A program made the position numbers and the translations under genes. 64,000 nt of DNA from Heptranchias perlo (lineage: Eukaryota): positions 9,176,001 through 9,240,000 of the forward strand of contig NC_090349.1 in the NCBI RefSeq assembly GCF_035084215.1, written 5' to 3'. The notes below the pieces were generated by a model that was not told the origin of the DNA, did not search any database, and saw nothing but the letters and a program-made list of their open reading frames with translations. This document shows positions 18,499-60,715 of this stretch, one piece after another. The first letter of the stretch is position 1. Every line of letters starts with the position of its first letter.

Positions 18499-18827
18499 TC
18501 ACTGGCAGGCTGATCTCTCGATGCTTTGCTTGAGTTGAGACCCGAGAGACTCATGTGTAACCCCGCAGGTGTACACTTGGTGTGAGTTCCAGTCGGTGGC
18601 GGACAGGGTCAGATAACTGCTCAGACTGTACGTCTGATCGGTGTCCCGTACGGCCTGAGTCGTCTGGACACCAGTGTCCGTGATCTTGCCGTCTACGCTC
18701 CACGATACTTCCACCGAACCCGGGAAAAAATTATTCACCAAACACACCAGGGTCGCCGCCTTTGCAGCAGAGATCTGATCGGACGCCGGCGGGAGGAGGG
18801 ATACCGAAGGGCTGGATGTCTCTCGAT
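18499..18827 (-). CDS. IGLC: Ig light-chain constant exon (lambda-type), cluster A
   Basis: C1-set domain PSVSLLPP..ATLVCLV..F.PG...V.W..YSLSSYLTL...W.SH.VYTC.VTH..ERSACQ with penultimate interchain Cys; acceptor ttcattgtag, phase 1. Confidence 0.95.
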
Positions 18828-18894
18828 CTACAATGAAAATGATTGTGTTTAATAAAGAAAGAAACTGCAATCGTATAATACACACGCGTATAAT

Positions 18895-19345
18895 GCAACC
18901 CCTTGCTCAGTGGTAGCACTCTCGGTCTACGAGTCAAAAGGTTATGGGTTCAAGTCCCACTTCAGAGACTGGAGCACAAAATTTAGGCTGACACTGCAGT
19001 GCAGTTCTGAGGGAGTGCCCCACTGCAGGAGGTGTCCTCTTTAAGATGAGAAGTTAAATCGAGGACTGGTCTGACTTCTCAGTTGCACGTAAAAGATCCT
19101 ATGCCACTATTTCGAAGAAGAGCAGGGGAGTTCTCCCTGGTGTCCTAGCCAATATTTATCCCTCATCTAACATCATTAAAACAGATTATCTGGTCATTAT
19201 CACACTGCTGTTTATGGGATCCTGCTGTAGGCAAATTGGCTGCCACATTTCCGAAATTACAACAGTGACTACACTCCAAAAGAACTTAATTGGCTATAAA
19301 CCGTTTCCTGAAGTCGTGAAAGGTGCTATATAAATTAAAGTTCTT
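18895..19345 (+). mobile_element. tRNA-derived Deu-domain SINE (SacSINE1-like)
   Basis: A box (gctcagtgg) and B box (ggttcaagtcc), central domain ..gtaaaagatcc..gaagaagagcaggggagttctc.., L2-like tail gctatataaa; family name assigned from memory. Confidence 0.75.
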
Positions 19346-19469
19346 TATTTTTCGCCCATAAATCACAGCAACGTAATATGAAAGTGATCACATTCTTTGA
19401 AACAAATGGCCAGACCCTTTACTGTCAATTTGACGTATTTCTATGGAACAAATCTAAAATCACTAGATA

Positions 19470-20430
19470 AATACAACGCACAATAAGAGATGTTGTCATC
19501 CGTCTTCTAGTTTATAGCTGTGCCCGTGTGAATGGACGCCAATCCAGCCTCCCCACAACAGCTATTACATGCAAGTGTGCATATTTGCGCTCAAATCATA
19601 TTAGATCAAAATCGAAACCGTCAAATCTCAGCAGACTTTTATATATCGGAGCTCCAACCAGTAAAACAACGTGGCTTTCAAAAGGGAATTGGATAAGTAC
19701 TTGAAGGGAAAGAAACTGGAGGGCTACGGGGAAAGGGCGGGGGAGTAGGACTAACTGGATTGCTCTTGCACAGAGCCGGCATGGTTTTGACGGGCCGAAT
19801 GGCCTTCTTCTGTGCTGTAACCATTCTAAGATTCAATGGCCCTCACAGGGTTAATCCTTTCTTTACAAACGGATTATTCATTGTATATAGTACAGAAAGG
19901 AAATCTTCCCACACAGGGAGCAAATTAAGGTTAACTGCTACACAACGTTTAGTTTCCGAAGAATAATAATCTCCAAATATTGATCAACGTTTTGTTGCCG
20001 TAAATCTCGGGGATGATGGTCACAAACAGAGCACTAAAATGTTTACTACCTTGAAGGATATTACAATATATATAACGCTGGAAAAATAACCTTTACACCG
20101 TTTCTGCAAAGTTTACGCCGAAGATTCCGCAAGTAATCCAGAAAAAAAGCTCGGTGGAAACCCTATCGTGCACACCCCCTAACTTTTGGTTGAAATCAAA
20201 ACTATTTTCCAATACTAATACTAAATAATAAGTACAACGCACAATAAGAGATGTTGTCATCAGTGTTCTAGTTTAAAACTGTGCCCGTGTGAATGGACGT
20301 CAATCCAGCCTCCCCACAACAGCTATTACATGCAAGTGTGCAAATTTACACTCAAATCATATTAGATTAAAATCGAAACCGTAAAACCTCAGAAGACTTT
20401 TATATATCGGAGCTCCAACCAGTAAAACAA
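19470..20430. repeat. ~200-bp direct repeat pair in the cluster A J-C intron (~19470-19670 and ~20232-20430)
   Basis: tacaacgcacaataagagatgttgtcatc...ggagctccaaccagtaaaacaa occurs twice with few mismatches. Confidence 0.85.
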
Positions 20431-20980
20431 AACCGACTAGTACAGATGTCAATGTGTTCAACAATTGGAGGAGTTTTCTGTCTAAGCTCTATATGTGCCG
20501 AAATCGCAACCCGCCTCTTTATAAACGATTTCGTTACACATAACGTACAGAGGAAACCTTTCCCCTGGTGAAAACAGTATCTGTTATCAAAAGAATGTCT
20601 TGAGCTCGGTATTTTTAAGACATTAAAAAGCTTCTAATGATTATTGCACTGGCCATTCGTAATTATCCCTCAATAATCGAGCTAAAATTTTCAGTGCACC
20701 AGGGATTAAAGGAGGCGCTCATATATTGTTCTGTCTGTCTGCCTGAACTCTTATTTTATCTGTCTTTCTCTTTGTCTTTCTTCATCTCTCTGTCTCTTTC
20801 TCTCTCTCTCTCTGTATTTGCATATTTGCTATTTGTGCGACGCTTTCAATTATGTTTTCAAACACAGATTATTACAATCTATGAAATATTTCTATTGTTC
20901 GCTGTCTCTGCTCGAAGGGGAAAACTAATCATAGAATAAAACCCATCGTTTCCTTTACGATTTGAAAATGTGATTGTTTT

Positions 20981-22682
20981 CATAGAAGCATAGATTCTTA
21001 CAGCACAGAAGGAGGCCATTCTCTAGTAGTTTCCCCACCACTGACGCTAGACTGATTGGCCTGTAGTTACTAGGTTTATCCCTCTCACCTTTTTTGAATA
21101 GGGATATAACATTTGCAATCCTCCAGTCCTCTGGCACCACTCCCATATCCAAGGAGGATTGAAAGATTGTGATCAGAGCTTCTGCTATCTACACCTTTGC
21201 TTCCCCCAGCAACCAAGGATGCATCCCATCTGGCCAGGGGACTTGTTAACTTTGAGTGATGCCAACCTGTTCAGAACCTCCTTTCTATCTATTGTTATCC
21301 TTTCCAATTTCTCTATTCCCTCTTCCTCTGCTGCGACAATAACTTCACCCTCTGCTTTTGTGAAGACAGATGCAAAATATTCATTCAGTACCTCTGTCAT
21401 GCCCTGTGCCTCCTTCAAGAATATTTCTTTTTTTGTTCCTAATCGGCCCCACCATTCCTTTGACTATCCTTTTACTTTTTACGTTTATAAAGATTTTTAT
21501 GTTACCCGCTAATCTTTTCTCATACTCTCTCTTTGCCTTTCTCATATCCTTTTTTCAATTACCCCCTGCGTTCTCTGTATTCTAAATGTTTTTCTATTGT
21601 ATTCTGTACCTGACATTTGTCAAAAACCTCCCTTTTCTGTTTTATTTTAACCTATATTGCCTTTGTCATCCAGGAAGCTCTAACTTTGGATGTCCCATAT
21701 TTCCTCCTTATGGGAAAATGCTTGGTTTGCAGCCGAAGTATCTCCACCTTGAAAGCCTGCCAATACTCATTTACACTTTTCCTAGCCAATCTTTATTTCA
21801 TTTGTTTCTAGATCTCTCCTCAAATTACTGAAATTGGATCTCTTCCAGCTGGATATTTTCAACTTTGATATTTCTTTGTCCCTTTCAATAACTACTTCAA
21901 AACGAATTACATTATGATCAATATTACCCAGATGTTCTCCCACTGAAAAACACTCCACTTTTCCTATTTCTTTCTCCAGTACTAGATCCAGCATTGCTTC
22001 CTTCCTCGTTGGGCTAGAAACATACTGATTAAGAACGTTCTCCTGTTCACATTTTAGGAATTCTTCACCCTCCTTGCCCTTTACACTGTTTTCCCCTGGT
22101 CTATATTAGGGTAATTGAACTCCCCTGCTATTAGTATTACGGCTCTATTATTTTTACATTTTTCTGAAATTTGCCTACAGATTTGCTCCTTTATCGCCTG
22201 CTCATTATTTGGGGGTTTATAGTAAACACCCAGCAACATAGAAGTTCCTTTTCTGTTCCTTAACTCTAACCAAATAGATTCAGTCTTTGAACCCTCTAGT
22301 ACATCATCCCTCTGCAGCACTGTAATGTTATCCTTGATCAATACTGCCACCTGCTCCTTCACCGCCCCCCCCTCCCCCCCCTCCCCCCCCCCCCCCCCCC
22401 GCTCTTGCCCATGTTTCAGCCAGGTCTGCATTATGGCCACTATATCACAACCCCTTTTGGTTACTTGTGCCTGCAGCTCATCAACCTTATTTGTAACACT
22501 CCTCGCATTAACACACATGCATTCGGATATCATGCTGTCCGACTTTGCTTTTTCCCTCCATCTAATTCCTGTTCTTTCTACACTGTTCTTTACTCTGTTG
22601 CTGTTTGCCCCTCCTAGTTTTCTATGCACCTAGTCTCTCCTCTCTGCTGCTACGTCCTGGTTCCCCTTCTCCTGCCAAATTA
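20981..22682 (-). mobile_element. Internally deleted CR1 LINE in the cluster A J-C intron
   Basis: Endonuclease (NARS..K.DEL, ESIWLEL) and NYRPISL fragments; GTTTT on both sides; absent at the paralogous site near 40830. Confidence 0.85.
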
Positions 22683-22821
22683 GTTTTATATCCCTAATAA
22701 ACGAATTTAAACATTCGTTATAACCTACAGCATCAAGTGTCTTACCTGCCTCATAATATTATATTAATAATCAAAACGAGAATATCCATTGTACAGAATG
22801 AATCAAGTAAAAGTTACTTAC

Positions 22822-22860
22822 TCAGAACAGTCAGCTTGGTGCCTCCACCGAAGTAAAGCA
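22822..22860 (-). CDS. IGLJ: Ig light-chain J segment (LYFGGGTKLTVL), unrearranged, cluster A
   Basis: FGXG motif, GTAAGT donor at 22821, directly abutting a perfect heptamer. Confidence 0.95.
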
Positions 22861-22888
22861 CACAGTGCTACAGACCCATTCAAAAAGA
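22861..22888 (+). promoter_or_regulatory. 12-bp-spacer recombination signal sequence of J
   Basis: CACAGTG (22861-22867) + 12 nt ctacagacccat + TCAAAAAGA (6/9 match to ACAAAAACC). Confidence 0.88.
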
Positions 22889-22980
22889 TCCTGCAACAGA
22901 AACTCGCAGAGTTAATTTATGACATTGAAACAAGCAAGTATCCTACTGGGCATAACTCTTTTATATGGTATTAGGGTATA

Positions 22981-23600
22981 TGCCATCATTGCAAGGGGAT
23001 TGGAGTACAAGAGTAAGGAAGTCTTGCTGCAATTATATGGGCTCTGGTGAGATCTCACCTGGAGTACTGTGTACAGTTTTGGTCTCCATACCTAAGTAAG
23101 GATACACTTGCCTTAGAGGGGGTTCAACGAAGGTTCACTAGATTGATTCTTGAGAAGGGAAGATTGTCCTTTGAGGATAGATTGAATAAAATGGACCTAT
23201 GTTCTCTGGAGTTTAGAAAAATGAGAGGTGATCTCATTGAAACGTATAAAATTCTTACAGGGCTTGACAGGGGAGATGCTGAGAGGTTGTTTCCTCTGGC
23301 TGAAGAGTTTAGAATTAGGAGTCATAGTCTCAAAGTAAGTGGTCGGCCATTTAGGACCGAGATGAGGATAAATTTATTCACTCAGGCGGTTGTGAACCTT
23401 TGGAATTCTCTACCCCAGAGGGCTGTGACTATATTCAAGATTGAGATCGATAGACTTTTGGACACTAAGGGAATCAAGGGATATGGGGATAGGGCGGGAA
23501 AGTGGAGTTGAGGTCGAAGATCAGCCATGATCTTATTGAATGGCAGAGCACCTCGAGGGGCCATATGGCCTACTCCCGCATTTATTTCTTATGTTCTTAT
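22981..23600 (+). mobile_element. CR1 LINE 3' fragment inside the V-J intervening sequence
   Basis: ORF 23047-23511 HLEYCVQFWSP..RGDLIETYKI..VVNLWNSLP plus a CR1 tail. Confidence 0.9.
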
Positions 23601-23802
23601 ATAGTTCTGAAACGTGCTGAATACGAAGCTTGCTCAGTAATCTCCGAAAGCGTTAAATGGCAATATAATGCCTCACAGACAACATACCAAAAATTTCAGC
23701 AAATCCGGGTAAACAGTTTATGTCGACAACAGGATGGTAACTTTGGAAAATGGGGCGTTTCTTTAGTTGTCCCAGGAAAATCAGGAGTGGGGAGTGGGCG
23801 AC

Positions 23803-24174
23803 CAGTCCTGTGCAGGGTTTTTGTATCAGTCCTGTGCAGGGTTTATGTATCAGTCCTGTGCAGGGTTTTTGCATCAGTCCTGTACAGGGTTTATGTATCA
23901 GTCCTGTGCAGGGTTTATGTATCAGTCCTGTGCAGGGTTTTTGCATCAGTCCTGTACAGGGTTTATGTATCAGTCCTGTGCAGGGTTTATGTATCAGTCC
24001 TGTGCAGGGTTTATGTATCAGTCCTGTGCAGGGTTTATGTATCAGTCCTGTGCAGGGTTTATGTATCAGTCCTGTGCAGGGTTTATGTATCAGTCCTGTA
24101 CAGGGTTTATGTATCAGTCCTGTGCAGGGTTTATGTATCAGTCCTGTACACGGTTTTTGTATCAGTCCTGTGCA
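23803..24174. repeat. 24-bp tandem repeat (~15.5 units) built on the V-RSS spacer and nonamer
   Basis: Unit cagtcctgtgcagggtttatgtat; nonamer-type words every 24 nt from 23816 to 24152. Confidence 0.95.
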
Positions 24175-24190
24175 ATTTTCCTCCATCGTG
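24152..24190 (-). promoter_or_regulatory. 23-bp-spacer recombination signal sequence of V
   Basis: CACGATG (24190-24184) + exactly 23 nt + perfect ACAAAAACC (24160-24152), directly after YYCGWWKSSA. Confidence 0.92.
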
Positions 24191-24504
24191 CGCAGAGCTT
24201 TTCCACCAACCACAGTAATAGTCGGCGTCGTCCTCCGGTTGAACGCCGCTGATGGTTAAATATGCGGCGTTGGTTGCCGACTGACTCCTTCCAGAGAATC
24301 GATCAGGAATTCCGGTACCCCTGCTATCACGGTTAAGATCATGGTAGAGTAGAAATATAGGAGCATTCCCGGGTTTCTGCTGGTACCATCCTATGTCAGA
24401 GTTGCCCAAGGTATCACCAGACACGCTGCAACTTATTTTAACCGTTCCTTCCGGGGTGATAGATAACGATTGCGGTTGAGTTAATGTAATCTCCGCGTTT
24501 GAAC
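24191..24504 (-). CDS. IGLV: Ig light-chain V exon, unrearranged, cluster A
   Basis: Open frame SNAEITLTQPQSLSITPEGTVKISCSVSG..WYQQKPGNAP..GIPDRFSG..YLTISGVQPEDDADYYC; acceptor ttttatag. Confidence 0.95.
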
Positions 24505-24626
24505 CTATAAAAAGATCGAGAAATATTAGAGGGTGAGCTTCAAATCATCAATAACGTCACTTTATATCTCTATACAACAAAACATTGTTCACAATGAATC
24601 CAGTCAAACGTTTCCTGAATACTTAC

Positions 24627-24675
24627 AGACTGCGCAAAGTATCAGCGTTGTGATGACACGGACCCACCCCGACAT
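24627..24675 (-). CDS. IGLV: Leader exon of cluster A (MSGWVRVITTLILCAV)
   Basis: 49-nt hydrophobic exon, GTAAGT donor, phase 1, in frame with the V exon. Confidence 0.9.
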
Positions 24676-24794
24676 TATGAATTGAGTTTGTCTCAGCAAC
24701 CTCGCCAGTTTGCAGGGAGAAGGTGTTGTCTACCAGGCTCCCCTGGTCTTATCAATGGTATGAATGAGGGCGGGTTACCACGTTGTCCTTAATT

Positions 24795-24802
24795 ATGCAA
24801 AT
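24795..24802 (-). promoter_or_regulatory. Ig light-chain promoter octamer ATTTGCAT (cluster A)
   Basis: Perfect octamer 120 nt upstream of the ATG in light-chain orientation; GATAAG TATA-like word near 24750. Confidence 0.9.
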
Positions 24803-25669
24803 GAACGCTGACGTTACAAATCCCAGTTGAGCACCTATGATCGTGTTCAGGCCTTTACGCCACAAGACTTCCAAACTGCAGATGGCGATATTGGATAACA
24901 GGACCGATCTATATTGTGATGTTGTGCATCACAATCAAGATTTGTTAATGTTAAGTACAGGGACGTGCTGAAATTGCTGATTGTGTAAACTATGTAAGTC
25001 ATAATTTTTGACAAAACTCAGTAGGGTATATATTTTTGATCTTTCCTTCTACACAGGCCACATGTAAGCATTAGGAAGCAAAATTAATCAGTATTTGCGC
25101 CTTCTCTAAAGACACTTGTCCTAAATGTGCAACAGATAACAACAATCTTCATACACTTAGAAATCAATCCGCAAAAATTCAGCTACATTGCTACAAACTA
25201 TAGCTTGATGATATTTTATCTTTCCAATTAAATAACTTTTTATGAAGAATTTAAAGATGTTAGCCCATTATGGTTTATTTGAACCGTTTCTGCCTGGTAC
25301 ATTTACGCGAAGAAGTGTCAGTAATGCTCTTCGCTGAAAATAAAACGATGCTTATTGCCATAAGATGATATGAATCGATTCCCTACAAATTAGGAAACGA
25401 TTACTTGACCGTAAACCGATTGTTGGCACAAGGATCACATCCTAACGAGGATGTAATTAATTGTATCAGGCGGCTCTTGTTGACCTTTGAGCGATAGGGA
25501 CGTATTTTGATGAACCAATAAGGGTGACACTGGGTTGCACCAGGGTCACCAGACAAGAATGAGCGCTACTTTTAGGGCACCACTAATAAAAGAAGAAATC
25601 AAATTAAAAGAACCACAGCACAAGCAAAACAACCCCAACAAAAGCAAAGGTAACCTTACCAACTAAATC

Positions 25670-27440
25670 ATAAATAAAAACAGAAAATGCTGGAAATACT
25701 CAGCAGGTCAGGCAACATCTCTGGAGAAAGAAATAGATTTAACGTTTCAGGTCGATGACCTTTCGTCAGAACTGGAAGAAGTTAAAGATTTAACAGTTTT
25801 TAAGCAAGTACAGTGCCAGGGAAAGTTGGGGGGGGGGGAGGAATGTGTGGGGACGAAAGAACAAAAGGGAAGGCCTGTGATAGAGTGGAGGACAGGAGTG
25901 GTTAAATGACAAAAGGGATGATGGTGCAATGCAAGGAGGGTGGGAATGGGACAAGTAAAGAAACGGAAGATGGGTCTAGATGAGTTGTAAATAACAACAG
26001 CAGAACCATTACGAGCACCTGCTGTCCGAAAAAAATGGGAGTAGTGGTTATGATCTGAAGTTATTGAAATCATATTGATTGAAGTTATTGAGTCCGGAAA
26101 GTTGTAAAGTGCCTAAACAAAAGAGGAGGTGCTGTTTCTCGAGTTTCCATTGACCTTCATTGGAACAGGGGGAAGGAGACCAAGGCCAGAGAGGTCAGCA
26201 TTGGAGTGGGATGGAGAATTAAAATGAAAAGTGACCGGAAGGTCAGGGTCACGCTTGCCGTCTGAACGGAGATGTTCAGCAAAGCCATCACCCTGTCTAT
26301 TATATCTACTATAGTAGCTTATCCACTATAAATCCAGGGACTCCACAGCTGTCTTCATTACACTTCCTCCCACCCACTTCCTGTAAGGACTCTGTTCCAT
26401 TCTCCCAGTTTCTCCATCTCCCTCACATCTGTTCTGACGATGCCACCTTCTACACCAATGCTTCCGACATGTCTTCCTTTTTCCTCAACCGAGGATTCCC
26501 CTCCACTGTATTGGACAGGGTCCTCGACCGTGTCTGTCCCATTTCCCGCACTTCTGCCCTCACCCCTTCCCCTTCCTCTCAGAACTAAGATAGAGTCCCC
26601 CTTGTCCTCACCTTCTGCCCCACCAACCTCCACATTCAATGAATCATCTTCCATTATTTCCGCCACCTCCAGCACGATGCAACCACCAAACACATCTTCC
26701 CCTCCCCTTTCAGCATTCAGAAGGTACCATTCGCTCTGTGACACCCTGGTCCACTCTTTCATCAACCCCAACACTAACCCCCCTTCCCACAGCACCTTCC
26801 CGTGCAAGCGCAGGAGATGCAGCACCTGCCCTTTCACCTCCTCCCTTCCCTCCGTCCACGGCCTCAAACACTCCTTCCAGGTGAAACAGCGATTTACTTG
26901 TACTTCTTTCAATTTAGTAAACTGTATTCGCTGCTCACGATGCGGTCTCTTCTACACTGGGGAGACCAAACGCAGATTGGGTGATCGCTTTGGTGAACAC
27001 CTCCATTCAGACGGGAAGCGTGACCCTGACCTTCCGGTCGCTTGTCATTTTAATTCCCTGTCCCATCCCACTCTGACCTCTCTGTCCTCTGCCTCTTACA
27101 CTGTTCCAAAAAAGCTCGAGGAACAGCTTTCAATTAGGCACTTTACAACCTTCCTGACTCAACATGGATTTCAATAACTTCAGACCATAACCACTGCTCT
27201 CATTTTTTCGGACAACAGGTGCTGGTCATGGTTCTGCTGCTGCTATTTACAGACCCTCTAGACCCATCTTTAGTTTCTTTACTTGTCCCATTACCACCCT
27301 CCTTGCCTTGCACCATCATCCCTTTTGTCATTTAATCACTCCTGCCTATCCACTCACCCTATCCAACTTCCCCTTTGTTCTTTCCTCCCCGCCCCCCCAC
27401 CCCCCACCCCACCCTTTGCCTTGCTCTGTGATTGCTTAAA
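25670..27440. mobile_element. Penelope-like retroelement remnants: plus-strand GIY-YIG region (~26340-27440) and an inverted 3' copy (~25670-26290)
   Basis: FTCTSFNLVNCIRCSRCGLFYTGETKRRLGDRFGEH is a Penelope-type GIY-YIG endonuclease; ~26000-26070 is the reverse complement of ~27168-27237. Confidence 0.82.
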
Positions 27441-27449
27441 AACTACCCA

Positions 27450-29610
27450 GCCTAATCCCACTTTCCAGCACTTGGTCCTTAGCCTTGTAGGTTATAGCAC
27501 TGCAAGTGCATATCCAAATGCCTTTTAAATGTGATGAGAGTTTTTTCCTCTACCACCCTTTCAGGTAGGGAGCTCCAGACCCCCACCACCCTCTCGGTGA
27601 TTTTTTTTTCCTCAGCTCCCCTCCAATCCTTCTACCAATTACTTTAAATCTATGCCCTCTGGTTATTGAACTCTCTGTTCAGGGAAATAGGTCCTTCCTG
27701 CCCACTCTATCTAGACCCCTCATAATTTTATACTCCTCAATTAAATCACTCCTCAGCCTCCTCTGTTCCAAAGAAAATAACCCCAGCATTTCCAATCTTC
27801 CATCATAGCTAAAATTCTCCAGTCCTGGCAACATCCTCATAAATCTCCTCTGCACCCTCTCTAGTGACCAGAACCATAAGCAGTACTTAAGTTGTGGCCT
27901 AACTAATGTTTTATACAGTTCTAGCATAACCTCCCTGCTCTTATATGCTATGCCTCGGCTAATAAAGGAATGTATCCCATATGCCTTCTTAACCACCTTG
28001 TCTACCTATCCTGCTACTTTCAGGGATCTGTGGACATGCACTCCAAGGTCTCTCTCTTCCTCTACACCTCTCAGTATCCTCCCTTTTATTGTGTATTCCC
28101 TTGCCTTGTAAGACCTCCCCAAATACATTACCTCACACTTCTCTGGATTGGATTCCATTTGCCACTTTTCTGCCCACCTGACCAGTCCATTGATATCTTC
28201 CTGCAGTTTACAGCTTTCCTCCTCACTATCAACCACACAGCCAATTTTTGTATCATCCCTAAATTTCTTAATCATGCCCCCAAAATTTAAGTCTAAATCA
28301 TTAATATATACTACAAAAAGCAAGGGGCCTAGTACTGAGCCCTGCGGAACCCAACTGGAAACAGCCTTCCAGTCACAAAAACATCCATCAACCAATATCC
28401 TTTGCTTCCTGCCACTGAGCCAATTTTGGATCCAATTTGCCACTTTCCCTTGGATCCCATAGGCTTTTACTTTTTCGACCAGTCTGCCATGTGGGACCTT
28501 GTCAAAAGCCTTGCTAAAATCCATGTAGACTACATTAAACACGCTAACCTCATCGACCCTCCTTGTCACCTCCTCAAAAAATTCAATCAAGTTAGTCAGA
28601 ACCGACCTTCCCTTAACAAATCCATGCTGACTGTCCATGATTAATCCGTGCCTTTTTAAGTGAAGGTTTATACTGAACGTCAGAATTGATTCCAATAATT
28701 TGCCCACCACCGAGGTTACACTGACTGGCTTGTAATTCCCATGTATATACCTTTCTCCCTTTTTACACAACGGTATAACATTAGCAGTCCTCCAATCCTC
28801 CAACACCACGCCTATAGCCAGGGAGGATCGGAAAATGATGGTCGGAGCCTCCTCTATTTCCTCCCTTGCTTCTTTTAACAGCCTGGGATACATTTCATTC
28901 GGGCCTGGTGATATACCTACTTTCAAAGATGCTAAACCCCTTAATACTTCCTCTCTTCCTATGTGCATCCGATCCAATATTTCACACTCCTCCTCGTTAA
29001 CTACAATCTCTGCATCGTCCCCTTCTTTTGTGAAGACAGACGCAAAGTATCCATTAAGAACCATACCCACATCTTCCGCCTTCACATATAGGTTATCTTT
29101 TTGGTCTCTAATAGGCCCTACTCCTTCCTTAGTTATCCTTTTGCTCTTTATGTATTTATAAAACATTATTGGGTTTTCCTTAATTTTACTTGCCAGTATT
29201 TTTTCATGCCCTCTCTTTGCTTTCCTAATTTCCTTTTTAATTTCACCCCTGCACTTTCTATACTCCTCTAGGCTTTCTGCAGTATTGAGCTCTCGGTGTC
29301 TGATATAAGCTTCCCTTTTTTGCCTTATCTTACCCTGTATGCTCCTTGTCATCCAGGGGGCTCTAGATTTGGCAGCCCTACCCTTTTCTTTGTGGGAATA
29401 TATTTATTCTGAACCCTTTGAATCTCCCCCTTGAATGCCTCCCACTGCTCTGACACTGATTTACCTTCAAGTAGCTGTTTCCAGTTTACTTTTGCTAAAT
29501 CACTCCTCAGCTTTGTAAAATTGGCCTTTCCCCAATTTAGAAATTTTACTCCTGTTCTATCTTTGTTCTTTTCCATAACTATGCTAAATCTAACTGAATT
29601 GTGATCACTA
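27450..29610 (-). mobile_element. CR1 LINE ORF2, 5'-truncated
   Basis: ORF 28006-29352 with NYKPVS, QHGFVKGRS, YMDFSKAFDKVPH, PQGSVLGP; further fragments either side. Confidence 0.92.
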
Positions 29611-30369
29611 CAAATAAACCAATAACTCGCACGGATATTCTCCATTCCAACCTTTATGTGAGGCACGATGGGTTAATAAATCTTTCTTTCCCACCTGTCA
29701 ATTATCCTATGAACAGCTGAAACCACAGTTAATATTGTCGTTCCATGGCCGCTTCGCAACCTTCGCGGATTATGGGGAATTAGGAAAGCCCCTTTTCACA
29801 TGTATTGGGTAACTAATCAATATGAGTGGTACTTTTCAGGGTTTCTTTTCAGCCATGTTTCCACAGAAAGGATTCGATTTTTAAAGCAAAGTGTAGTTAC
29901 ACAAGTTTTTAAAAATGAGTGGAATGGTCAATAATATGCTAATATCTACCCTTTAAGATTAAATTCATCAAAGGTCATAAACAACAAGCAATTCATTAGT
30001 CTATCTCTACAATACACACCTCACACCCACTGTGTTGGGAAATCTCTGGTTCAGGGTGCCCAAAAGTGGCTGTCTGACCCTCCCCTTCCAGCTGTTAAGA
30101 AAGGATTTAGACAATACACAAACAGACACTGATAATCACGTCCCTAAACCGAAAGCTGTGATGGAAAGTTTTCGCCAGGCACAAAAGGTTAAAATGTAGA
30201 AAGACAGGTAGGAGTCATTTTGTTATGTCAAGCAGAATCACCCATTCATGTATTATAACATGAAGACAAATTGTACTGATTAAATCAAGTGAGTCTGATC
30301 CTCATTGTTATAATCTATGTTCGCTTTCTGTGAAATAAAACAATATATGGATTGTTTCTGCCGTCATCT

Positions 30370-30740
30370 TTCTTTTTCATTCTCTGGAAATGGACATCGC
30401 TGGCAAGGCCAGCATTTACTGCCCGTCCCGTTTTGCCCTTGAAAAGGGGTGGTGAGCCTTCTCCTTGTAGTGAAGGTACTCCCACAATGATGTTAGGTTG
30501 GGAGTTTCAGAGTTTGACCCAGGGATGATGAAGGAACAGATACATGTGTCCAAGTCGGGATGGTGTGTGACTTGGAAAGGGACTTGGAGGTGATGGTGTT
30601 CCCATGCTGCTCCTGCCATTGTCCTTCTAGATGGTTGAGGTCGCGGGTTTGGGAGCTGCAGTCGAAGAAGCCTTGGCGAGTTGCTGCAGTGCACCCTGTG
30701 GGTAGTAGACACTGCAACCACGGTACGCTGGTGGTGGACG
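30370..30740 (-). mobile_element. 3' fragment of the LINE family seen at 5148-7569
   Basis: HCSNSPRLLR..LPNPRP.P.RRT matches 7119-7361. Confidence 0.8.
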
Positions 30741-33561: not shown

Positions 33562-33569
33562 ATTTGCAT
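33562..33569 (+). promoter_or_regulatory. Octamer ATTTGCAT of pseudogene B
   Basis: Same context as the D promoter (ttaacgATTTGCATagatacaggacagg). Confidence 0.85.
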
Positions 33570-33611
33570 AGATACAGGACAGGCGTGTTCACAGGTTTGA
33601 TAAAAAGAGAT

Positions 33612-37325: not shown

Positions 37326-37328
37326 TAT

Positions 37329-47457: not shown

Positions 47458-47778
47458 AAGAACAAAAGAAACAGAAGCAGGAGTAGGCCATATGGCCGCT
47501 CGAGCCTACTGCACCATTCAATAAGATCATGGTTGATCTTCGACCTCAATTCCACTTTCCCGCTCGATCCCCATATCCCTCAATTCCCTTAGAGTCCAAA
47601 AATCAATCGATCTCAGCCTTGAATATACTCAACGACTGAGCATCCACAGCCCTCTGGGGTAGAGAATTCCAAAGATTCACAACCCTGTGAGTGAAGAAAT
47701 TCCTCCTCATCTCAGTCCTAAATGGCTGACCCCTTATCTTAAGACTATGCCCCCCAGTTCTAGACTCTCCAACCAAGA
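47458..47778 (-). mobile_element. CR1 3' fragment
   Basis: RRNFFTHRVVNLWNSLP plus tail; absent from the paralogous site near 31590. Confidence 0.85.
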
Positions 47779-50257: not shown

Positions 50258-51199
50258 AATTCTCCACTATGGGTCTCAGCCCTTCACCTAATTCTCCACT
50301 AATGGGTCTCAGCCCTTCACCTAATTCTCCACTAATGGGTCTCAGCCCTTCACCTAATTCGCCACTATGGGTCTCAGCCCTTCACCTAATTCGCCACTAT
50401 GGGTCTCAGCCCTTCACCTAATTCTCCACTAATGGGTCTCAGCCCTTCACCTAATTCGCCACTATGGGTCTCAGCCCTTCACCTAATTCTCCACTAATGG
50501 GTCTCAGCCCTTCACCTAATTCGCCACTATGGGTCTCAGCCCTTCACCTAATTCGCCACTATGGGTCTCAGCCCTTCACCTAATTCTCCACTAATGGGTC
50601 TCAGCCCTTCACCTAATTCGCCACTATGGGTCTCAGCCCTTCACCTAATTCTCCACTAATGGGTCTCAGCCCTTCACCTAATTCGCCACTATGGGTCTCA
50701 GCCCTTCACCTAATTCGCCACTATGGGTCTCAGCCCTTCACCTAATTCGCCACTATGGGTCTCAGCCCTTCACCTAATTCGCCACTATGGGTCTCAGCCC
50801 TTCACCTAATTCTCCACTATGGGTCTCAGCCCTTCACCTAATTCTCCACTAATGGGTCTCAGCCCTTCACCTAATTCTCCACTAATGGGTCTCAGCCCTT
50901 CACCTAATTCTCCACTATGGGTCTCAGCCCTTCACCTAATTCTCCACTATGGGTCTCAGCCCTTCACCTAATTCTCCACTAATGGGTCTCAGCCCTTCAC
51001 CTAATTCTCCACTAATGGGTCTCAGCCCTTCACCTAATTCTCCACTAATGGGTCTCAGCCCTTCACCTAATTCTCCACTAATGGGTCTCAGCCCTTCACC
51101 TAATTCTCCACTAATGGGTCTCAGCCCTTCACCTAATTCTCCACTATGGGTCTCAGCCCTTCACCTAATTCGCCACGATGGGTCTCAGCCCTTCACCTA
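50258..51199. repeat. Homogeneous 32/33-bp minisatellite (~29 units) upstream of gene D
   Basis: Unit aattc(t/g)ccacta(a)tgggtctcagcccttcacct, head-to-tail with no spacers. Confidence 0.95.
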
Positions 51200-51596
51200 G
51201 TCGCATAATATTTTCAAAAGCAATCTAAACTCTCGATAATAGAAAAGAGCGATATTAATTTTATAGAGTTTTAGTCGAGTACACAAAATTGTCGGCCCTT
51301 AATTAATTTAAGATTACTTAACTGGAACCTTATCTCATTTGATACTCTTCTAACACGAATCTATTTATATATTAGCAATATGGCAATTAATTTCACGGAA
51401 GGCAAATAAAAGCAAATCTGTAAAACTGGAATCTATAATGTAAAACAATCTGTGTCAACAGTTTCTGAAAGCTCCGAGCTCCAGATAGTCTAATTCCGTT
51501 GTCTATGGAAAATTAACAACATTCCTGACACAACAGACTGCATATTGCTTGTCATCAGTTTGGATGGTCCAATTGAGTTTTGCCGTTTCATTAACG

Positions 51597-51650
51597 ATTT
51601 GCATAGATACAGGACAGGCGGTAACGCCTCGTTCACAGGGTTGATAAAAA
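51597..51650 (+). promoter_or_regulatory. Promoter of gene D: octamer ATTTGCAT (51597-51604) and TATA-like GATAAAAA (51643-51650)
   Basis: Perfect octamer ~120 nt upstream of the leader ATG. Confidence 0.88.
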
Positions 51651-51725
51651 GAGATGGCGAAACAGATAAACGATCCGTTTCACCTGGATATCATCGACAT
51701 ATCTGCTTCTATTTAACTCTTCACA

Positions 51726-51774
51726 ATGTCTGAGTGGCTTGTTGTTGTCACCGTGCTGATACTTTTTATGTCAG
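51726..51774 (+). CDS. IGLV: Leader exon of gene D (MSEWLVVVTVLILFMS)
   Basis: 49-nt hydrophobic exon, GTAAAT donor, phase 1. Confidence 0.9.
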
Positions 51775-51878
51775 GTAAATATTCGAACATTTGATTGCAG
51801 GTTGGAATCGCTGTGAATAACGATTTATTGCGCAGTATTAGATAGTGTCTGAAGCTCATACATCTATTCTTTTCACAG

Positions 51879-52235
51879 GCTCAAACGCTGAGGTTACATT
51901 AAGCCAACCACAGTCTCTTTCCACTGCTCTGGGAGGAAACGTCGAAATAAGTTGTACAGTCACCGGAGTCAGCTTGGGAAACGCAGCTGTATCCTGGTAC
52001 CAGCAAAAATCTGGGAATGTTCCTCGGTATATTCTGTACCATAATGCCCAAACTGTAAGCAGAGGCTCCGGCACTCCAGATCGATTCTCCGGAAGAAGTA
52101 GCTCGTCAACCAACGCTGGATATTTAACCATCAGTCAGGTGCAATCGGAGGATGAGGCGAACTATTACTGCGGTGTATGGATTAGCTCCATCAATGCTTT
52201 TGCCTTCGGGACAGGCACCAAGCTGACTTGTCTGA
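51879..52235 (+). CDS. IGLV: Germline-joined VJ exon of Ig light chain D, in frame
   Basis: EVTLSQPQSLS..ISC..WYQQKSG..PDRFSG..EDEANYYCGVWISSINAFAFGTGTKLTCL, GTAAGT donor, no RSS; L+VJ+C = 49+357+329 = 735 nt (244 aa). Confidence 0.95.
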
Positions 52236-53661
52236 GTAAGTAACTTTACTTCGTGCTGTTAGACGAGATGTTATTTTTAATTTACTCCTCAAATGAATAA
52301 GGTTCCAAACATTGAAAATCAGGTGTCTCAGATTTATGAAGTATATAGCACATGTATAAGAGTACTTAAACATACACACAAAAGGCAATACTTACAACTA
52401 AACCTTGCTAGTTTAGTTGAGGGATTCAGACGTGTTAGAGTTCTGAGCTCAGTATCTGACGTCTTATGAATCGAAGTACTCATTACAAACAGACAATTTT
52501 TATACATTTCGCTTACTCCATCCACGTGACAATCCATACAATTCCGTATTACATAATAGTTATAATACAACTTATCAACTTAATTGACTTGTCAATAACT
52601 TCAGTTTTCCTTACACAAGCTATTTTTTCGTAGACTGGTACAACTCCGCTATTTCATTATCTTATTGATACTTCGCTCTTGTTGCATAGAATTGCTATTC
52701 CACCAAATTAAACTTTTAATTATAAGTCTCTCTTTGATTCAGTACCATTTCGCAGCAGGTAATCTCCTCCTTCTGCATAAATCCCAATTAAAAAGTATGA
52801 CTTATACCCAGATGTTTTCTTTTGCAGAACTAACTGTTTCTCCTGCACTTATCAACTGATAAAGTTCTCTGAAATATATGAATCTGTATGCAATGGCAAG
52901 TCTTTTAATTAGGTTTACTGAAGTGACTAATTAACCACTGCTGCAAGGTCAGTCCTGAATCAATAGCCCATTGGTGCTCTCAATTGACTTAAACTTCCCT
53001 GCTGAAAAGGCAATGGCTAAGGGTTATAATTACTACAATATGAAGAGAAATCAATAGTAGTATAACATTAGTAGACTTCAGGACAATCTGATTAACCCTT
53101 TTCTTAAGTGCAATATGTTCCTGTACTCGTGGCAAAGGGTTGTTTCACTTACGGTTTATAAACAATTGTGTACGCCCGATCTACAAATTCATTTTGATTT
53201 ATTCAATTGTAATAATGGGAGGAAGGTCTTTCCAAAAGTCAAAATATAAAATTATTCCACGGCCTATGTTTCAACGGTCATTACCCTTTTCTGTCCTTCC
53301 GTTGTTGGTATTGTTAAAAAAAAAAGGCAAAACATCCAAGCTTATTTAAGCCAGGAGAATTACCATACCCTTTCATTGATTAATTTCCCTCTTCTCTTAA
53401 TTTCCCCATTGGATTGTAACGATTTAATTGTTGCTATTGGAGTCAAAAAGGACACAGCATCAATTAGGCTGTTTATATCGTTAGTCCATATTTTACCCCT
53501 ATAGTCAGAGTTGCTGTTTTTAAGAGGGTACAGATAATTCAATCCTGCGGTGTAATATACACTTAACAGGATTGAATTTGCATTTATATAACGCCTTTTA
53601 CAACCTCAGAACGTTCTGTAGTGTTTCATAATCAATTAATTACTTTTGAAGTATAATCACT

Positions 53662-55835
53662 TAACTGGAGGAGGGCTAATTTCAGTGAGTTAAAAAGGGA
53701 TCTTGCCCAGGTGGATTGGAATCAAAAATTGATAGGCAAAACAGTGATTGAACAATGGGAGGCTTTCAATGAGGAGATGGTTCGGGTACAGTGTAGACAC
53801 ATTCCCACGGGCGATGGGGTGGGGAGAGGAGGGACATCCAAATCTAGACCTCCTTGGATGACTTACAGTATAGAGATTAAAATGAAACAGAAAAAGGAGG
53901 CTTAAGACAAGTGTGAGATTCATAATACAGTAGAGAACCAAGCAAATACAGAAAGTACAGAGGAGATCTAAAAAACAGGCATAAGAGGGGCAAAGAAAGA
54001 GTATGAGAATAGGTTAATGGCTAACATAAAAGAGAACCCAAAAGTCTTTTATAAACATATAAATAGTAAAAGGATGGTCAAAGGATGGGTGGGGCCTATT
54101 GGGAACAAAAAATGAGATCATGTGGAGGCAGAGAACATGGCTGAGATACTAAATAAATACTCCAAATCGGTCTTCACTAGAGAGGAGGATGCTGCCAATG
54201 TAGCAGTAAAGGAGGAGGTAGGAGCGATATTAGATGGGATAAAAAGAGATAAAGAGGAGGTACTTAAAAGATTGGCAGTACTCAAAGTAGAAAAGTCACC
54301 CGGCCCAGATGTGATGCATCCTAGGTTACTGAGGGAAGTAAGAGTAGAAATTGCAGAGGATTCGGCCACAATCTTCCAATGCTCCTTAGATATGGGGGTG
54401 GTGCCAGAAGATTGGGGGATTGCAAATGTTACATCCCTGTTCAAAAAAGGGGATAAGGATAAACCCAGCAATTACAGGCCAGTCAGCCTAACATCAGTGG
54501 TGGGGAATCTTTTAGAGACAATAATCTGGGACAAAAGTAATTGGCACTTAGAAAAGTATCAGCTAATAAATGAAAGTCAACACGGATTTGTTAAAGGCAT
54601 ATCATGTTTGACTAACTTGATTGAGTTATTTGATGAAGTCACAGAGAGGGATAATGAGGGCAATGCGGTTGACATTGTGTATATGGACTTTCAAAAGGTG
54701 CCACATAATAGGCTTGTCAGCAAAATTCAAGCCCATGGAATAAAAGGGGCAGTAGCAGCATGGATACGAAATTGGTAAAGGACAGAAAGCAGAGAGTAGT
54801 GGTGAACGGGTGTTTTACAGACTGAAGGGAAGTGTACAGTGGTGTTCCCCAGGGGTCAGTATTAGGATCACTGCTCTTTCTATATGAACGACCTGGACTT
54901 GGATATACAAGGTATAATTTCAAAGTTTGCAGATGACATGAAACTCGAGAATATAGTAAACAATGTGAAGGATAGTAACAGACTTCAAGAGGACATAGAC
55001 AGATTGCTGAAATGGGCAGACACATGGCAGATGAAACTTAATTCAGAGACATGTGAAGTGATACATTTTGGTAAGAAGAATGAGGAGAGGCAATATAAAC
55101 TAAATGGTACAATTTTAAAGGAGGTGCAGGAACAGAGAGCCCTGGGGTGTATGAACACAAATCTTTGAAGTTAGCAGGACAAGTTGAGAAGGTTGTTTAG
55201 AAAGCAAATGGCATCCTGGACTTTATTAATAGAGGCATAGCGTACAAAAGCAAGGAAGTTATGCTAAACCTTTAGAAAATACTGGTTAGACCCTAGCTGG
55301 AGTATTGTGTTCAATTCTGGGCACCACATTTTAGGAAACATGTCAAGGCCTTAGAGAGGGTGCAGAACAGAATGGTACTATGGATGAGGGACTTCAGTTG
55401 TGTGGCGAGACTGGAGAAGCTGGGTTGTTCTTAGAGCAGAGAAGGTTACGAGGAGATTTGATAGAGGTGTTTCAAAATCATGAACAGTTTTGATAGAGTA
55501 AATAAGGAGAAACTGTTGCCAGTGGCAGAACAGTCGGTAACCAGAGGACACAGATTTAAGGTGATTGGCAAAAGAACCAGAGGCGGCATGAGGAAAATCT
55601 TTTTATGAGGAGAGTTGTTATGATCTGGAATGCACTGCCTGAAAGCGTGGTGGAAGCAGATTCAATAATAAATTTCAAAAGGGAATTGGATAAATACTTG
55701 AAGGGAAAAAAATTACAGGACAATGGGAAAAGAGTGGGGGAGTGGGACTAATTGGATAACTCTTTCAAAGAGCCGGCACAGGCAAGATGAGCCAAATGGC
55801 CTCCTTCTGTGCTGTAACACATACGATACTATGAT
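53662..55835 (+). mobile_element. CR1 LINE in the J-C intron of D
   Basis: ORFs 54122-54778 and 54884-55168 (NYRPVSL, QHGFVKG, KFADD) and a 3' tail; splits a SINE. Confidence 0.9.
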
Positions 55836-56294
55836 AATATAGGGAAGTGTAGCCGTTATTAGGCACACAGCAAGGTCCCAGCAATGAGATAAATGACCAC
55901 ATAATATCACCTTGGTGGTGTTGTTTGAAGGATAAATGTTGTCTGGGACACCAGGAGAATGCCCTGCTCTTTTTCAAGAAGCGCCATTGAGAGGGCAGAT
56001 GGGGCCTCGGTTTAACCTCATCCAAAAGAGTAAAGCTCCAAAGGTGCAATACTCTCTCAGTGCTGCACTATGATGTAAGCCTAGATTATGCACACAAGTC
56101 TCTGGAGTGGGGTTTGAACCCACAATCTTCCAATTGGGAGGTAAGAGTGCGACCAGTGAACCAAGGCTGATATTATGGGGTATATCTTGACTTCATGCGG
56201 TAGTGTAAAACCAGTCAATTGAAATAAGAATCAGAAGAGATGTAAATCTTGCTGCTGATTCACTGTGACCTGTTTTACACTATCGCACAAAGTC

Positions 56295-59200
56295 ATAAGA
56301 ACATAAGAAAGAGGAGCAGGAGTAGGCCATACCGCCCCTCGAGCCAGCTCCGCCATTCAATCAGATCATGGCTGATCTTCTACAGCAACTCCACATTCCC
56401 GCCTGATCCCCACATCCTTTGATTCCCCGAGAGTCCAAAAATCTATCCATCTCAGCCTTGAATATATTCAAAGACTCAGCATCCACAGCCCTCTAGGGTA
56501 GAGAATTCCAAAAATTCACAACCCTCTGCATGAAGTAATTCCTCCTTATCTCAGTCTTGAATGGCCGACCCCTTATCCTGCGACTATGCCCCCTAGTTCT
56601 AGTCTCTCTAGCCAGGGGAAACAATCTCTCAGCATCTACCCCATCAAGTCCACTCATAATCTTATATGTTTCAATGAGATCACCTCTCATTCTTCTAAAC
56701 TCTAGAGAGTAAAGGCCCATTTTACTCAACCTCTCTTCATAGGAAAACCCTCTCATCCCAGGAATTAATCTAGTGAACCTTCATTGCACTGCCTCTAAGG
56801 CAAGTATATCCTTCCTTAGATAAGGAGACCAAAACCATATGCAGTTCTCCAGGTGAGGTCTCACTAAAGCTTCCCTACTCTTGTACTCCAACCCCTTGTA
56901 ATAAAGACCAACATGCCATTTGCTTTCCTAATTGTCTGCTGTACCTGCATACTAACTTTTTGTGTTTCTTGTATGAGGACACCTAAGTCTCTCCAGGAAC
57001 AGCAACATTTAATAGTTTCTCACCATTTAAAAAATATTCTGTTTTTCTATTCTTCCTACCAAAGTGGATAACCTCCCATTTCCCCACATTATACTCCATC
57101 TGCCACCTTCTTGCCCACTCACTTAATCTGTTTATATCCCTTTGCAGACTCTTTGTGTCCTCCTCACAGCTTACTTTCCCACCTAGCTTTGTGTCATCAG
57201 CAAACATGGATACATTACACTCGGTCCCTTCATTTAAGTCATTAATATGGATTGTAAATAGCTGAGACCCAAGCACCAATCTTGCGGCACTCCACTAGTT
57301 ACAGCCTGCCAACCTGAGAATGACCCATTTATCTCTACTCTCTGTTTTCTGTCCTTCAACCAATCCTCTGTCCATGCTATTACCCCCAACCCCATGAGCC
57401 CTTACCTTGTGCAACAACCTTTTATGTGGCACCTTATCCAATGCCTTTTGAAAATCCAAATATACTACATCCACTGGTTCCCATTTATCTACCCTGCTAG
57501 TTACATCCACAAAAAACTCTAATAAATTTGTCAAACACGATTTCCCTTTCATAAAACCATGCTGACTCTGCCTAATCATATTATGATTTTCAAAGTGCCC
57601 TGTTACCACTTCTTTAATAATGGATTCCAGCATTTTCCCGATGACGGATGTCAGGCTAATTGGCCTGTAGTTCCCTGTTTTCTCTCTCCCTCCCTTCTTG
57701 AACAGCGGGGTAACATTTGTTACATTCCAGTCCATTGGGACCGTTCCAGAATCTAGATAATTTTGGAAGATCATAACCAATGCATCCATTATCTCTTCAG
57801 CCACCTCTTTTAGAATCCTAGGATATAGTCCATCAGGTCCAGGGGATTTGTTGGCTTTTCGTCCCATTAGTTTGTCCAGTACTTTTTCTCTAATGATATT
57901 AATTGTTTTAAGTTCTTCATGCTCATTCACCCCTTGGTTCCCCACTATTTTTGGTATGCTTTTTGTGTCCTCTACTGTGAAGACAGATACAAAATATTTG
58001 TTTAACGCCTCTGCCATTTCCTAATTCCCCATTATAATTTCTCCTGTCACAGCCTCATAGGGACCAACATTTACTTTTGTTACTCTCTTCCTTTTTACAT
58101 ACTTGTAGAAACTCTTACAATTCGTTTTTATATTTCTTGCTAGTTTACTTTCATATTCTATTTTCTCCCCTTTCATCAATTTTTTGGTCGTCCTTTGTTG
58201 GTTTCTAAAACTCTCCCAGTCCCAGGCTTATTATTCTTCTTGGCAACATTGTAGGCCTCTTCTTTCAATCTAATACTCTCCTTAACTTCTTTAGTTAGCC
58301 AGGGGTGGATCACTTTTTCCGTGGAGTTTTTATTTCTCAATGGAATGTATATTTGTTGAGAATATTGAAATATTTATGTAAATGTTTGCCATTGCTTTTC
58401 AGCTGTCAAAGCCTTTAATTTAATTTCCTTATCTACCTTTGACAACTCGCCCTTCATACATGTAATTGGCTTTATTTAAGTTTAAGTCTCTAGTTTCTGA
58501 CTTAAGTATGTTACTTTCAAACTCAATGTGAAATTCTATCATATTATGATCACTCTTCCCCAGAGGTTCTTTTACTGTGAGATTACTAATTAACCCTATG
58601 ACGTTAATAATACAAGATCTAAAATAACCTGTTCCCTGGTTGTTTCCATGAAGTATTGCTCTAGGAAACCGTCTCAAATGCATTCCATTAACTCATCTTC
58701 CAAACTACCTTTGCCAATTTGATTTGCCCAGTCTATATGCAGATTAAAGTCCCCCCATGATGACTGCATTTTCTCTGTTAGAAGCTCCTATTATTTCATG
58801 ATTAATACTCTGTCCAACAATATTGCTGCTATTAGGGAGCTGGTAAACTACTCCCACCACTGTTTTCTGCCCCTTGTTATTTCTAATTTCCACCCATATT
58901 GATTCTACTTCCTGATCTTCTGAGCCAAGATCCTTTCTCACCAAAGTCCTTATGTCATCCTTTATTGTTGGGGCTACATCCCCCCCCCCCCCTTTTCCAT
59001 TCTGCCTGTCTTTTCTAAATGTCATGTACCCTGGAATATTTAGTTCCCAACCTTGGTCATTTTGCAACCATGTCTCTGTAATGGCTATTAGGTCAAACCC
59101 ATTTATCTCTATTTGTGTAATTAATTCATCTGTCTTGTTATGAACGTACAGCTCTGTGCATTCAGGTAAAGAGCCTTTAATTTTGACTTTTTACCATTTT

Positions 59201-59480
59201 GCCTGCTTTGACCTTACTTGTTGCTGCACATTATTGATAAACTCTCTGTCCCTTCCTGCCACACTCTGCTTATCTTTACCCAAATCACTACACTGCTCTA
59301 TTGTCTTAACTTTTCTCATTAGATTTCTAAATTTCCCCTCACCTGACCCCTCCTTCCCGAACCCCCCTTTTTTTTTAGTTTAAAGCCCTATCTACAGCCC
59401 TTGTTATTCCATTCGCCAGAACGCTGGTCCCAGCCCGGTTTAACTGGAGCTCCCTCTTTCCCCAGTACTGGTGCCAATGC
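56295..59480 (-). mobile_element. CR1 LINE in the J-C intron of D
   Basis: Endonuclease and RT fragments (58744-59067, 57295-58017, 56983-57279, 56493-56756); interrupts a MITE. Confidence 0.9.
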
Positions 59481-60386
59481 CCCTGGTTAAGATCTACCCC
59501 TGAGTCTTCCTGAGTTCCCTAATATATTAAATCCGTAAAATAATAATTAGTGAGGTTGACAAAGGAATGTGTGGGACACAGATAAAAAGGGGCATGAGGT
59601 AAAGACATACAGTATTATTAAGAAGATGGAAGATAGCTTGCATTAAGTGTTGGTGCGCCGGGGGGTCAGTGGTTGAATTTGGAACGCAAAATTACCCGGA
59701 ATTTTGGGAAGATCCGAATAAATGTCAGCGAGTACCACAAACTGTAATATTTCACCGGAAGTTTGATCGTTATCCTTTATTATTTTGACTTCAGGTTGTC
59801 TTGTCATTTTATTGAGCTATTTTATAACCTGTGAACAGAGCTGGGAGTGTGCGTGCTGGAATATTTCATTTCCTTACAAACCCAGTAAGATTGTAAGTGA
59901 AACGTCGGGAGCGCAACTGCCGCGGGCAACAATGCTGGCAGAAGATGAGCGACACTTTCCCGTAGTGTGTTCTGTCTGTTCTCTTTCTTTGATAGCTTAA
60001 TGTGTGTGTCCTCTACTTTTTATAGACACTAATTCATGAAATGCAATCAGTGCATCGAAACTGTAGTTTGGCATTTAATATACTTGGAGCGCCATTCTGT
60101 AAATATATCAGGGCACACAGAATATGTGACGGCCCTGATCCAAATAACCTCAGTTTTCAATTAGAATTATTATTCGAAATATTTAGCGGCATTAACTATT
60201 TTATTTATAAACACTTGGGGAGATTGCATAGAATTTGTGCTATCTTTCAGGGGTTTCCGCCGAAGTTACGGCCGACGAGCGGGAGAACACGCTGGGAAAT
60301 TCAGCCGCAACTGCTTTGTTCCAGTATTGCAGTAACACCTGGTTTATTTATTTACTTATCTGCCTTTAAACTATTTCCCTTTCCAG

Positions 60387-60715
60387 CCCGAGAGACGTCC
60401 AGCCCTTCGGTATCCCTCCTCCCGCCGGCGTCCGATCAGATCTCTGCTGCAAAGGCGGCGACCCTGGTGTGTTTGGTGAATAATTTTTTCCCGGGTTCGG
60501 TGGAAGTATCGTGGAGCGTAGACGGCAAGATCACGGACACTGGTGTCCAGACGACTCAGGCCGTACGGGACACCGATCAGACGTACAGTCTGAGCAGTTA
60601 TCTGACCCTGTCCGCCACCGACTGGAACTCACACCAAGTGTACACCTGCGGGGTTACACATGAGTCTCTCGGGTCTCAACTCAAGCAAAGTATCGAGAGA
60701 TCAGCCTGCCAGTGA
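60387..60715 (+). CDS. IGLC: Ig light-chain constant exon (lambda-type), gene D
   Basis: Acceptor tttccctttccag; same protein as the cluster A C exon apart from the split first codon. Confidence 0.95.

Follow-up and report, generated by a model that had tools for sequence, protein, structure and literature searches.

A germline-split lambda-type light chain gene and its germline-joined partner with a near-identical constant exon in the shark Heptranchias perlo

Introduction

All lambda light chain genes studied in cartilaginous fish are described as germline-joined (PMC5192425 and a second review). We analyzed 64,000 nt of DNA from Heptranchias perlo (C28:9176001-9240000, NC_090349.1), called the window here, which holds four light chain genes in the order A(-) B(+) C(-) D(+). 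Gene A is very probably a lambda-type gene that is split in the germ line, is rearranged between its variable (V) and joining (J) segments in transcripts, and lies head to head with the pre-joined gene D, and the constant (C) exons of the two are 99% identical, likely via repeated gene conversion. The inner genes, B (D-type) and C (A-type, called copy C below), are dead. A literature search turned up no report of a shark lambda gene that is split or rearranges; it did not cover subscription journals, and an earlier account is possible. The locus was found neither in one elephant shark supplement file nor in two rows of the PMC12227049 supplement, and the supplements of PMC13320880 and PMC5985310 may list these genes. 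In its excerpts, PMC13320880 did not type fish light chains.

The classic shark lambda genes (NS3/type II; PMC4279169, PMC5192425) resemble this locus in having a single V, J, and C in each cluster and in their lambda-like V and J. The germline join described for NS3/type II is present in D and in 15 neighboring V genes, and they lie in the same chromosomal array. Unlike NS3/type II, gene A and a second gene (L016) are split with recombination signal sequences (RSSs) of 23 and 12 spacers, A rearranges, and the C domain falls in a distinct clade, in a tree that held no kappa C rows. Judged by the germline V-J join, D would thus count as a classic shark lambda gene and A would not; judged by the type II C clade neither would, as their C domains form a separate one. 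While the neighboring classic clusters align with each other through their introns at 92-94%, A and D have the C exon alone in common.

Other described systems share single features with the locus. In nurse shark kappa NS4 (Lee et al. 2000, PMC2193156), split and joined paralogs are adjacent, the RSSs have been cleanly excised, the coding ends are trimmed, and joining has occurred repeatedly and independently, much as in copy C; unlike NS4, the genes here are of the lambda type and the joined paralog is an out-of-frame tandem copy. The sterlet IgL3 lambda cluster (PMC5985310) is, like A, a single V-J-C cluster with 23/12 RSSs, but sterlet lambda is without junctional variability, whereas A has many N-containing joints. 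The C domains of UrIg2 (PMC12227049) are homogenized within shark species like those of A and D. Conversion in UrIg2 takes place between domains of one gene, whereas here it would involve two genes separated by 42 kb, whose C exons are inverted relative to each other. Nurse shark sigma-2 (NS5; PMC5192425), with two split genes, one joined gene, and one pseudogene, is likewise a small mix of rearranging and invariant genes. Unlike NS5, A has the opposite RSS polarity and other V and C clades, and the locus has a head-to-head layout and exon-limited C identity. Going by its title, a 2004 paper by Fleurant and colleagues reportedly describes N-rich junctions in nurse shark sigma-2.

Rearranging gene A and germline-joined gene D

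Gene A is intact in all its parts, namely the octamer, leader, V, 23-spacer RSS, 1.33-kb interval, 12-spacer RSS, J, and C (Table 1). Contigs from four runs of one individual, not recorded as RNA but presumed to be so, were mapped onto 18400-24800 of the window. The leader-V and J-C splices are present in the mapped contigs, and thus the runs hold spliced RNA. V-J joints account for 12 of the 15 joint rows listed, besides which there are 123 more rows; their V ends are at 24190-24195 and their J starts at 22854-22858. The RNA contigs contain at least 12 V-J joints of gene A, and also non-templated letters and splicing to C. Among the rows with inserted letters, 10 of the 12 listed are V-J joints (178 more rows exist). 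All 10 are in frame, where one third would be expected without selection, and they encode a complementarity-determining region (CDR) 3 of 8-11 residues. By established V(D)J biology, RAG would make these somatic joints and TdT would add the letters.

Gene D is joined in frame in the germ line, and its protein is identical to the NCBI Heptranchias perlo model P0055. An 11-residue CDR3 is present in 9 of 9 D-type protein models. The proposal in the original prediction that one member of the pair rearranges while the other is invariant is therefore borne out by the joints of A in RNA and the in-frame germline join of D. The J of D contributes an additional cysteine to the V-C elbow (52229-52231), which is found at that position in 0 of the 8 other D-type models. 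A surrogate light chain role for D like that of VpreB was considered, and no evidence for it was obtained.

Two further features were seen in A. The units of a 24-bp minisatellite consist of the spacer end and nonamer of its own V RSS, and the array places about 15 nonamer-like copies behind the single heptamer. At 24404 there is a G/T difference in the V of A in RNA contigs of the Heptranchias sample; four other organisms have T, and it is probably an allele.

Table 1. Features of the light chain locus, in window coordinates
Feature	Position	Strand	Basis or remark
Gene A C exon, intact	18499..18827	-	J-C splice 22822/18827 in RNA contigs
Gene A J segment	22822..22860	-	sequence
Gene A J RSS, 12-spacer, canonical heptamer, nonamer with 3 mismatches	22861..22888	+	used in vivo (RNA contigs)
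24-bp minisatellite, 15.5 copies	23803..24174	.	units = spacer end + nonamer of A's own V RSS
Gene A V RSS, 23-spacer, heptamer with 2 mismatches, canonical nonamer	24152..24190	-	used in vivo (RNA contigs)
Gene A V exon, unjoined	24191..24504	-	sequence
Gene A leader exon	24627..24675	-	leader-V splice in RNA contigs; octamer upstream at 24802-24795
Gene D leader exon	51726..51774	+	sequence; octamer at 51597-51604
Gene D VJ exon, germline-joined in frame, 11-residue CDR3	51879..52235	+	identical to NCBI model P0055
Gene D C exon, intact	60387..60715	+	sequence
Dead gene B, D-type, V-J joined, junction length as in D	33562..35637	+	alignment to D
Dead gene C, A-type, V-J joined out of frame	41013..41519	-	alignment to A
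Duplicated block 1	20359..38058	.	self-alignment, repeat-masked comparison
Duplicated block 2	40215..60293	.	self-alignment, repeat-masked comparison
Block junction, expected site of both absent C exons	38060..40215	.	alignment, remnant search

Assignment to the lambda isotype

The RSS polarity of A (V-23/J-12) is of the lambda type, and three genes of other isotypes in the Heptranchias genome have a 12-spacer RSS at the V. The isotype labels of the genes L017, L019, and L020 are our own assignment from their features. The locus is surrounded by a classic lambda array, in that 15 of the 16 V matches on C28 outside the window are germline-joined. TOP3B is at 8.04-8.08 Mb on this contig, 1.1 Mb from the locus, and IFT81 is at 26.4 Mb; TOP3B anchors the tetrapod lambda region (PMC9614664) and IFT81 adjoins the sterlet lambda cluster (PMC5985310). 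The J and V of A are most similar to lambda.

By manual count CDR1 has about 8 and CDR2 about 6-7 residues. The ranges given in PMC5985310 are 3-9 (CDR1) and 3-7 (CDR2) for lambda, and 5-7 and 2-3 for the lambda-2 of ray-finned fish, and a lambda-2 identity of A and D is disfavored by these lengths. No lambda-2 sequences were among the protein matches, and the trees hold no lambda-2 row. We also considered sigma-2 (NS5/type I), whose CDR lengths (8 and 7) fit A, but the RSS polarity and the trees do not; the V trees separate A and D from sigma and sigma-2 with support of 98/89. A search of the PDB matched mostly single-chain variable fragment constructs and gave no information on isotype.

Probable homogenization of the C exons

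A and D agree at 325 of 329 nt in their C exons. The identity stops on one side at the splice acceptor and on the other some 16 nt beyond the stop codon, and the flanks cannot be aligned. Third positions differ between the two genes at 2 of 109 sites in the C exons and at 47 of 103 in the V exons, and therefore selection at the protein level alone does not explain the identity of the C exons.

In phylogenetic trees, from all of which the truncated model P0050 was left out, the V domains of A and of D form separate clades, each spanning sharks and rays (100/99 and 98/98). A and D are thus not products of the block duplication described below, and the unit was rightly proposed to be a divergent pair of two V families. 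Whereas V domains group by gene, C domains pair by species in 5 of the 6 species that have both genes: the pair is identical in Heptranchias, has support of 100/99 in Narcine, and has weaker support in Heterodontus, Pristiophorus, and Mustelus; Pristis does not show the pattern. A clade of D-type C domains was rejected (approximately unbiased test, p-AU 2e-83; the identical pair was not constrained, and the A of Chiloscyllium punctatum was left out). The two light chains had also been predicted to share a C domain. They do have the same C protein from residue 2 onward, but it is encoded by two separate C exons that are kept alike and not by one.

The longest contigs of the A and D models are equal in size in four other species, which suggests that the two genes are linked there as well. 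These patterns are best read as the likely outcome of gene conversion that acted again and again between linked C exons. The inverted C exons would convert each other, being the sole homology between A and D, and the outcome would likely be two light chains, a diverse one and an invariant one, whose heavy-chain-binding C domain is the same. Such conversion may be favored by selection for a single heavy-chain interface, or it may simply follow from the arrangement of the genes.

Copy C and joining in the germ line

In copy C both RSSs and the 1.33-kb interval are gone, and the alignments of its V side and J side to A abut. V has lost about 3 nt and J about 6; the junction, of 20 nt, is out of frame, and the joint is within the range of the somatic joints of A. 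Copy C therefore shows what RAG-type joining in the germ line leaves behind, that is, removed RSSs and interval, trimmed ends, and a closest paralog that is split. No P or N nucleotides were evident at the joint, which is decayed. The gene carries further lesions: a mutated octamer, 48-bp and 70-bp deletions at the leader donor and V acceptor, a stop in framework region 3, and no C exon. Its closest copy in the Heptranchias genome is A (86% in V), although the V tree does not resolve copy C with A against the sequences of other sharks. Since that closest copy is split, copy C was most simply joined in the germ line after the duplication.

Contigs of other organisms (X9, X15, X21, and X23) were mapped onto the V of A. 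For X9 and X23 there are contigs in which J follows V without a gap, and the same is probably true of X15 (two contigs, agreement 0.63). In X21, the sole run covering 24140-24191, V continues through the RSS. The V-J junction sequences of X9, X23, X15, and copy C all differ from one another. We infer that D was joined once, before the split of sharks and rays, and A repeatedly. The split state would be ancestral, and A-type genes would then have been joined in germ cells several times, in copy C and in other sharks.

Duplication of the A/D unit

The V domains were located on the predicted strands, at 24504-24191 (A, -), 35286-35579 (B, +), 41298-41047 (copy C, -), and 51881-52189 (D, +), and the only C exons of the window are at the outer ends, at 18827-18499 (-) and 60387-60715 (+). 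The three predicted pairs of homologous flanks were recovered as well (about 20380-22860 with 40230-41050, 24200-25670 with 41050-44130, and 30820-38060 with 46720-60290). After masking of anything that matches elsewhere, be it within the window or among 183 kb of other loci, the two blocks still align over 5,313 columns at 85.3% identity (Kimura two-parameter distance 0.16). The homology is therefore neither a matter of dispersed repeats nor a haplotype mis-join, two outcomes that the original prediction had named as fatal to it; the divergence is far too high for two haplotypes. Of the 13 same-strand matches that have one other copy, 12 are collinear, and the thirteenth is a piece of a long interspersed nuclear element. 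Rank and order statistics of collinearity were dropped as circular, the chain having been picked as collinear. Among 150 scored candidates for each gene (lower bounds), no second A/D pair was found elsewhere in the Heptranchias genome.

Block 1 keeps the A-type gene and block 2 the D-type gene, as predicted, and the inner genes bear several lesions each. In B these are a 1.4-kb repeat between the octamer (33562) and the leader (35121), a stop in the leader, frameshifts and stops in V, and the absence of a C exon. Orthologous 32-bp minisatellites lie upstream of the B and D promoters (32855-33156 and 50254-51199), with about 10 decayed copies at 76% by dead B versus 29 copies at 97% by live D.

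The homology of B to D stops 94 bp short of the C exon, and that of copy C to A stops about 1.5 kb short of it, so that both missing C exons map to one junction of 2.1 kb. The junction contains repeats and a 135-bp inverted piece of the J-C intron of A (39985-40119); no remnants of a C exon and no homology to its 3' flank were found in it. A single event at the junction suffices to account for both losses, and dosage selection is unnecessary. The event would have been either the duplication of a piece without C exons or one deletion of two adjacent inverted copies. There is nothing unusual in a duplication whose inner copies are dead; what stands out at this locus is a lambda gene that rearranges, the joined twin beside it, and a homogenization of C that is confined to the exon. 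The original prediction makes no mention of the V-J join of copy C, of where the identity of the C exons stops, or of the lambda type of the RSSs and of the rearranging gene.

Alternative explanations and implications

Several points weigh against our account. The four RNA runs are of one sample, the same as that of the best DNA runs, and the contigs carry no levels, tissues, or cell counts. The V trees (8 tetrapod V rows, one kappa row) leave lambda and kappa unseparated at the base, and the A/D C domain is 53-57% identical to the intact classic shark lambda C, against 49% for kappa; the lambda label is therefore carried by the RSS, the chromosomal position, and sequence similarity. C domains do not pair by species in Pristis and stingrays, and the C domains of A and D are 65-69% identical across stingray species. 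Conversion is thus not universal, and the process has lapsed in stingrays. Outside Heptranchias the head-to-head A/D pairing is presumed from protein models. The split state in X21 is documented by one listed 83-nt contig. Finally, the block junction fits C exons that were duplicated and then deleted as well as C exons that were never duplicated.

The A/D family and L016 might instead be a separate isotype inside the lambda region, in which case the rule that shark lambda is pre-joined would survive. We regard this as rather doubtful. The distinct C clade and its distance from the intact classic lambda C are in keeping with it, as are a clade of their own for the V domains of A and D (95/89, in a tree from which several shark rows were left out) and the statement in a 2026 preprint (PMC13320880) that subtypes of fish light chains have gone unrecognized. 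Against this stand the lambda RSS type, the site within the lambda array near TOP3B, the lambda-like J and V, and CDR1 and CDR2 lengths within the lambda and not the lambda-2 range. It is scarcely credible that the near-identical C exons are a product of assembly collapse or a haplotype mis-join: there is one assembly, to which runs of the same sample add no independent evidence, but the exons have four fixed differences, RNA contigs splice the J of A (22822) to an A-specific exon start, the pairing of C domains by species is also seen in models of four other species, and the divergence between the blocks is 15%.

Lee et al. 2000 (PMC2193156) raised the possibility that an RSS-flanked piece is reinserted into a joined gene, by which the split state of A would be derived. 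A 9-residue CDR3 is found in 9 of 12 A-type protein models of other species, as if there had been one old join that included the rays; nine residues are, though, also a common somatic outcome. No target-site duplication was found at the RSS borders, the V and J of A would be 2 nt out of frame if rejoined directly, the joined junctions differ among X9, X23, X15, and copy C, and the split state recurs in another organism (X21) and another gene (L016), all of which makes reinsertion highly improbable. As to the lost inner genes, the original prediction held that the duplication took in the entire pair with its C exons and that selection then restored the dosage by removing one A-type and one D-type gene. 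One gene of either type does survive, and the extent of the homology of B toward the C exon and the inverted intron piece fit a later deletion and not a clean breakpoint. But both C exons were lost at the same junction without remnant, for which one deletion, or C exons never included, suffices without selection, and two A-type models are present in Pristiophorus, where an extra dose of A appears to be tolerated. We therefore consider dosage restoration unlikely and prefer a single event at the junction.

More broadly, and with some hesitation, we propose that sharks and rays may hold an overlooked second lambda lineage with its own C domain, in which V-J rearrangement was kept and which is perhaps the closest living counterpart of the lambda that rearranges in bony vertebrates. 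Its back-to-back diverse/invariant pair would date from before the shark-ray split, with the C exons kept identical and the rearranging member repeatedly frozen by RAG in germ cells. Gene A contradicts the standing statement that lambda of cartilaginous fish never rearranges and provides the split form that had been missing. This points to the pre-joined lambda genes being derived and not relics of a pre-RAG gene. An ortholog found split in one set of sharks and joined in another, together with a joined dead twin, allows RAG events in the germ line to be dated and compared, and opens to study the CDR3 length that is selected when a receptor becomes frozen. The A/D unit also bears on how sharks maintain one light chain per B cell with a pre-joined and a rearranging gene side by side.

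Neighboring genes and minor features

L016 (C28:10172179-10176808; parts 680-1290 and 4990-5310) is a second split lambda-type gene, 1 Mb away. It has a 23-spacer RSS at V and a 12-spacer RSS-like signal at J, about 200 bp apart, and a short CDR2, and its C shares 67% identity with that of the A/D type; upstream of the gene no octamer was found. Directly to the left of the window, L002-L005 (C28:9104000-9176200) are a joined lambda family with a long CDR2 and a classic C domain, and short-CDR2 families lie 0.7 Mb to the right. L017 and L018 (C47:3376200-3398000), of another isotype, have tail-to-tail C exons encoding an identical protein, but their flanks are 97-99.7% alike, and they are a recent inverted duplication. 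Within the window, a 970-bp direct repeat (7633-8598 and 11991-12956; 90% identity) with long open frames is probably derived from a transposon.

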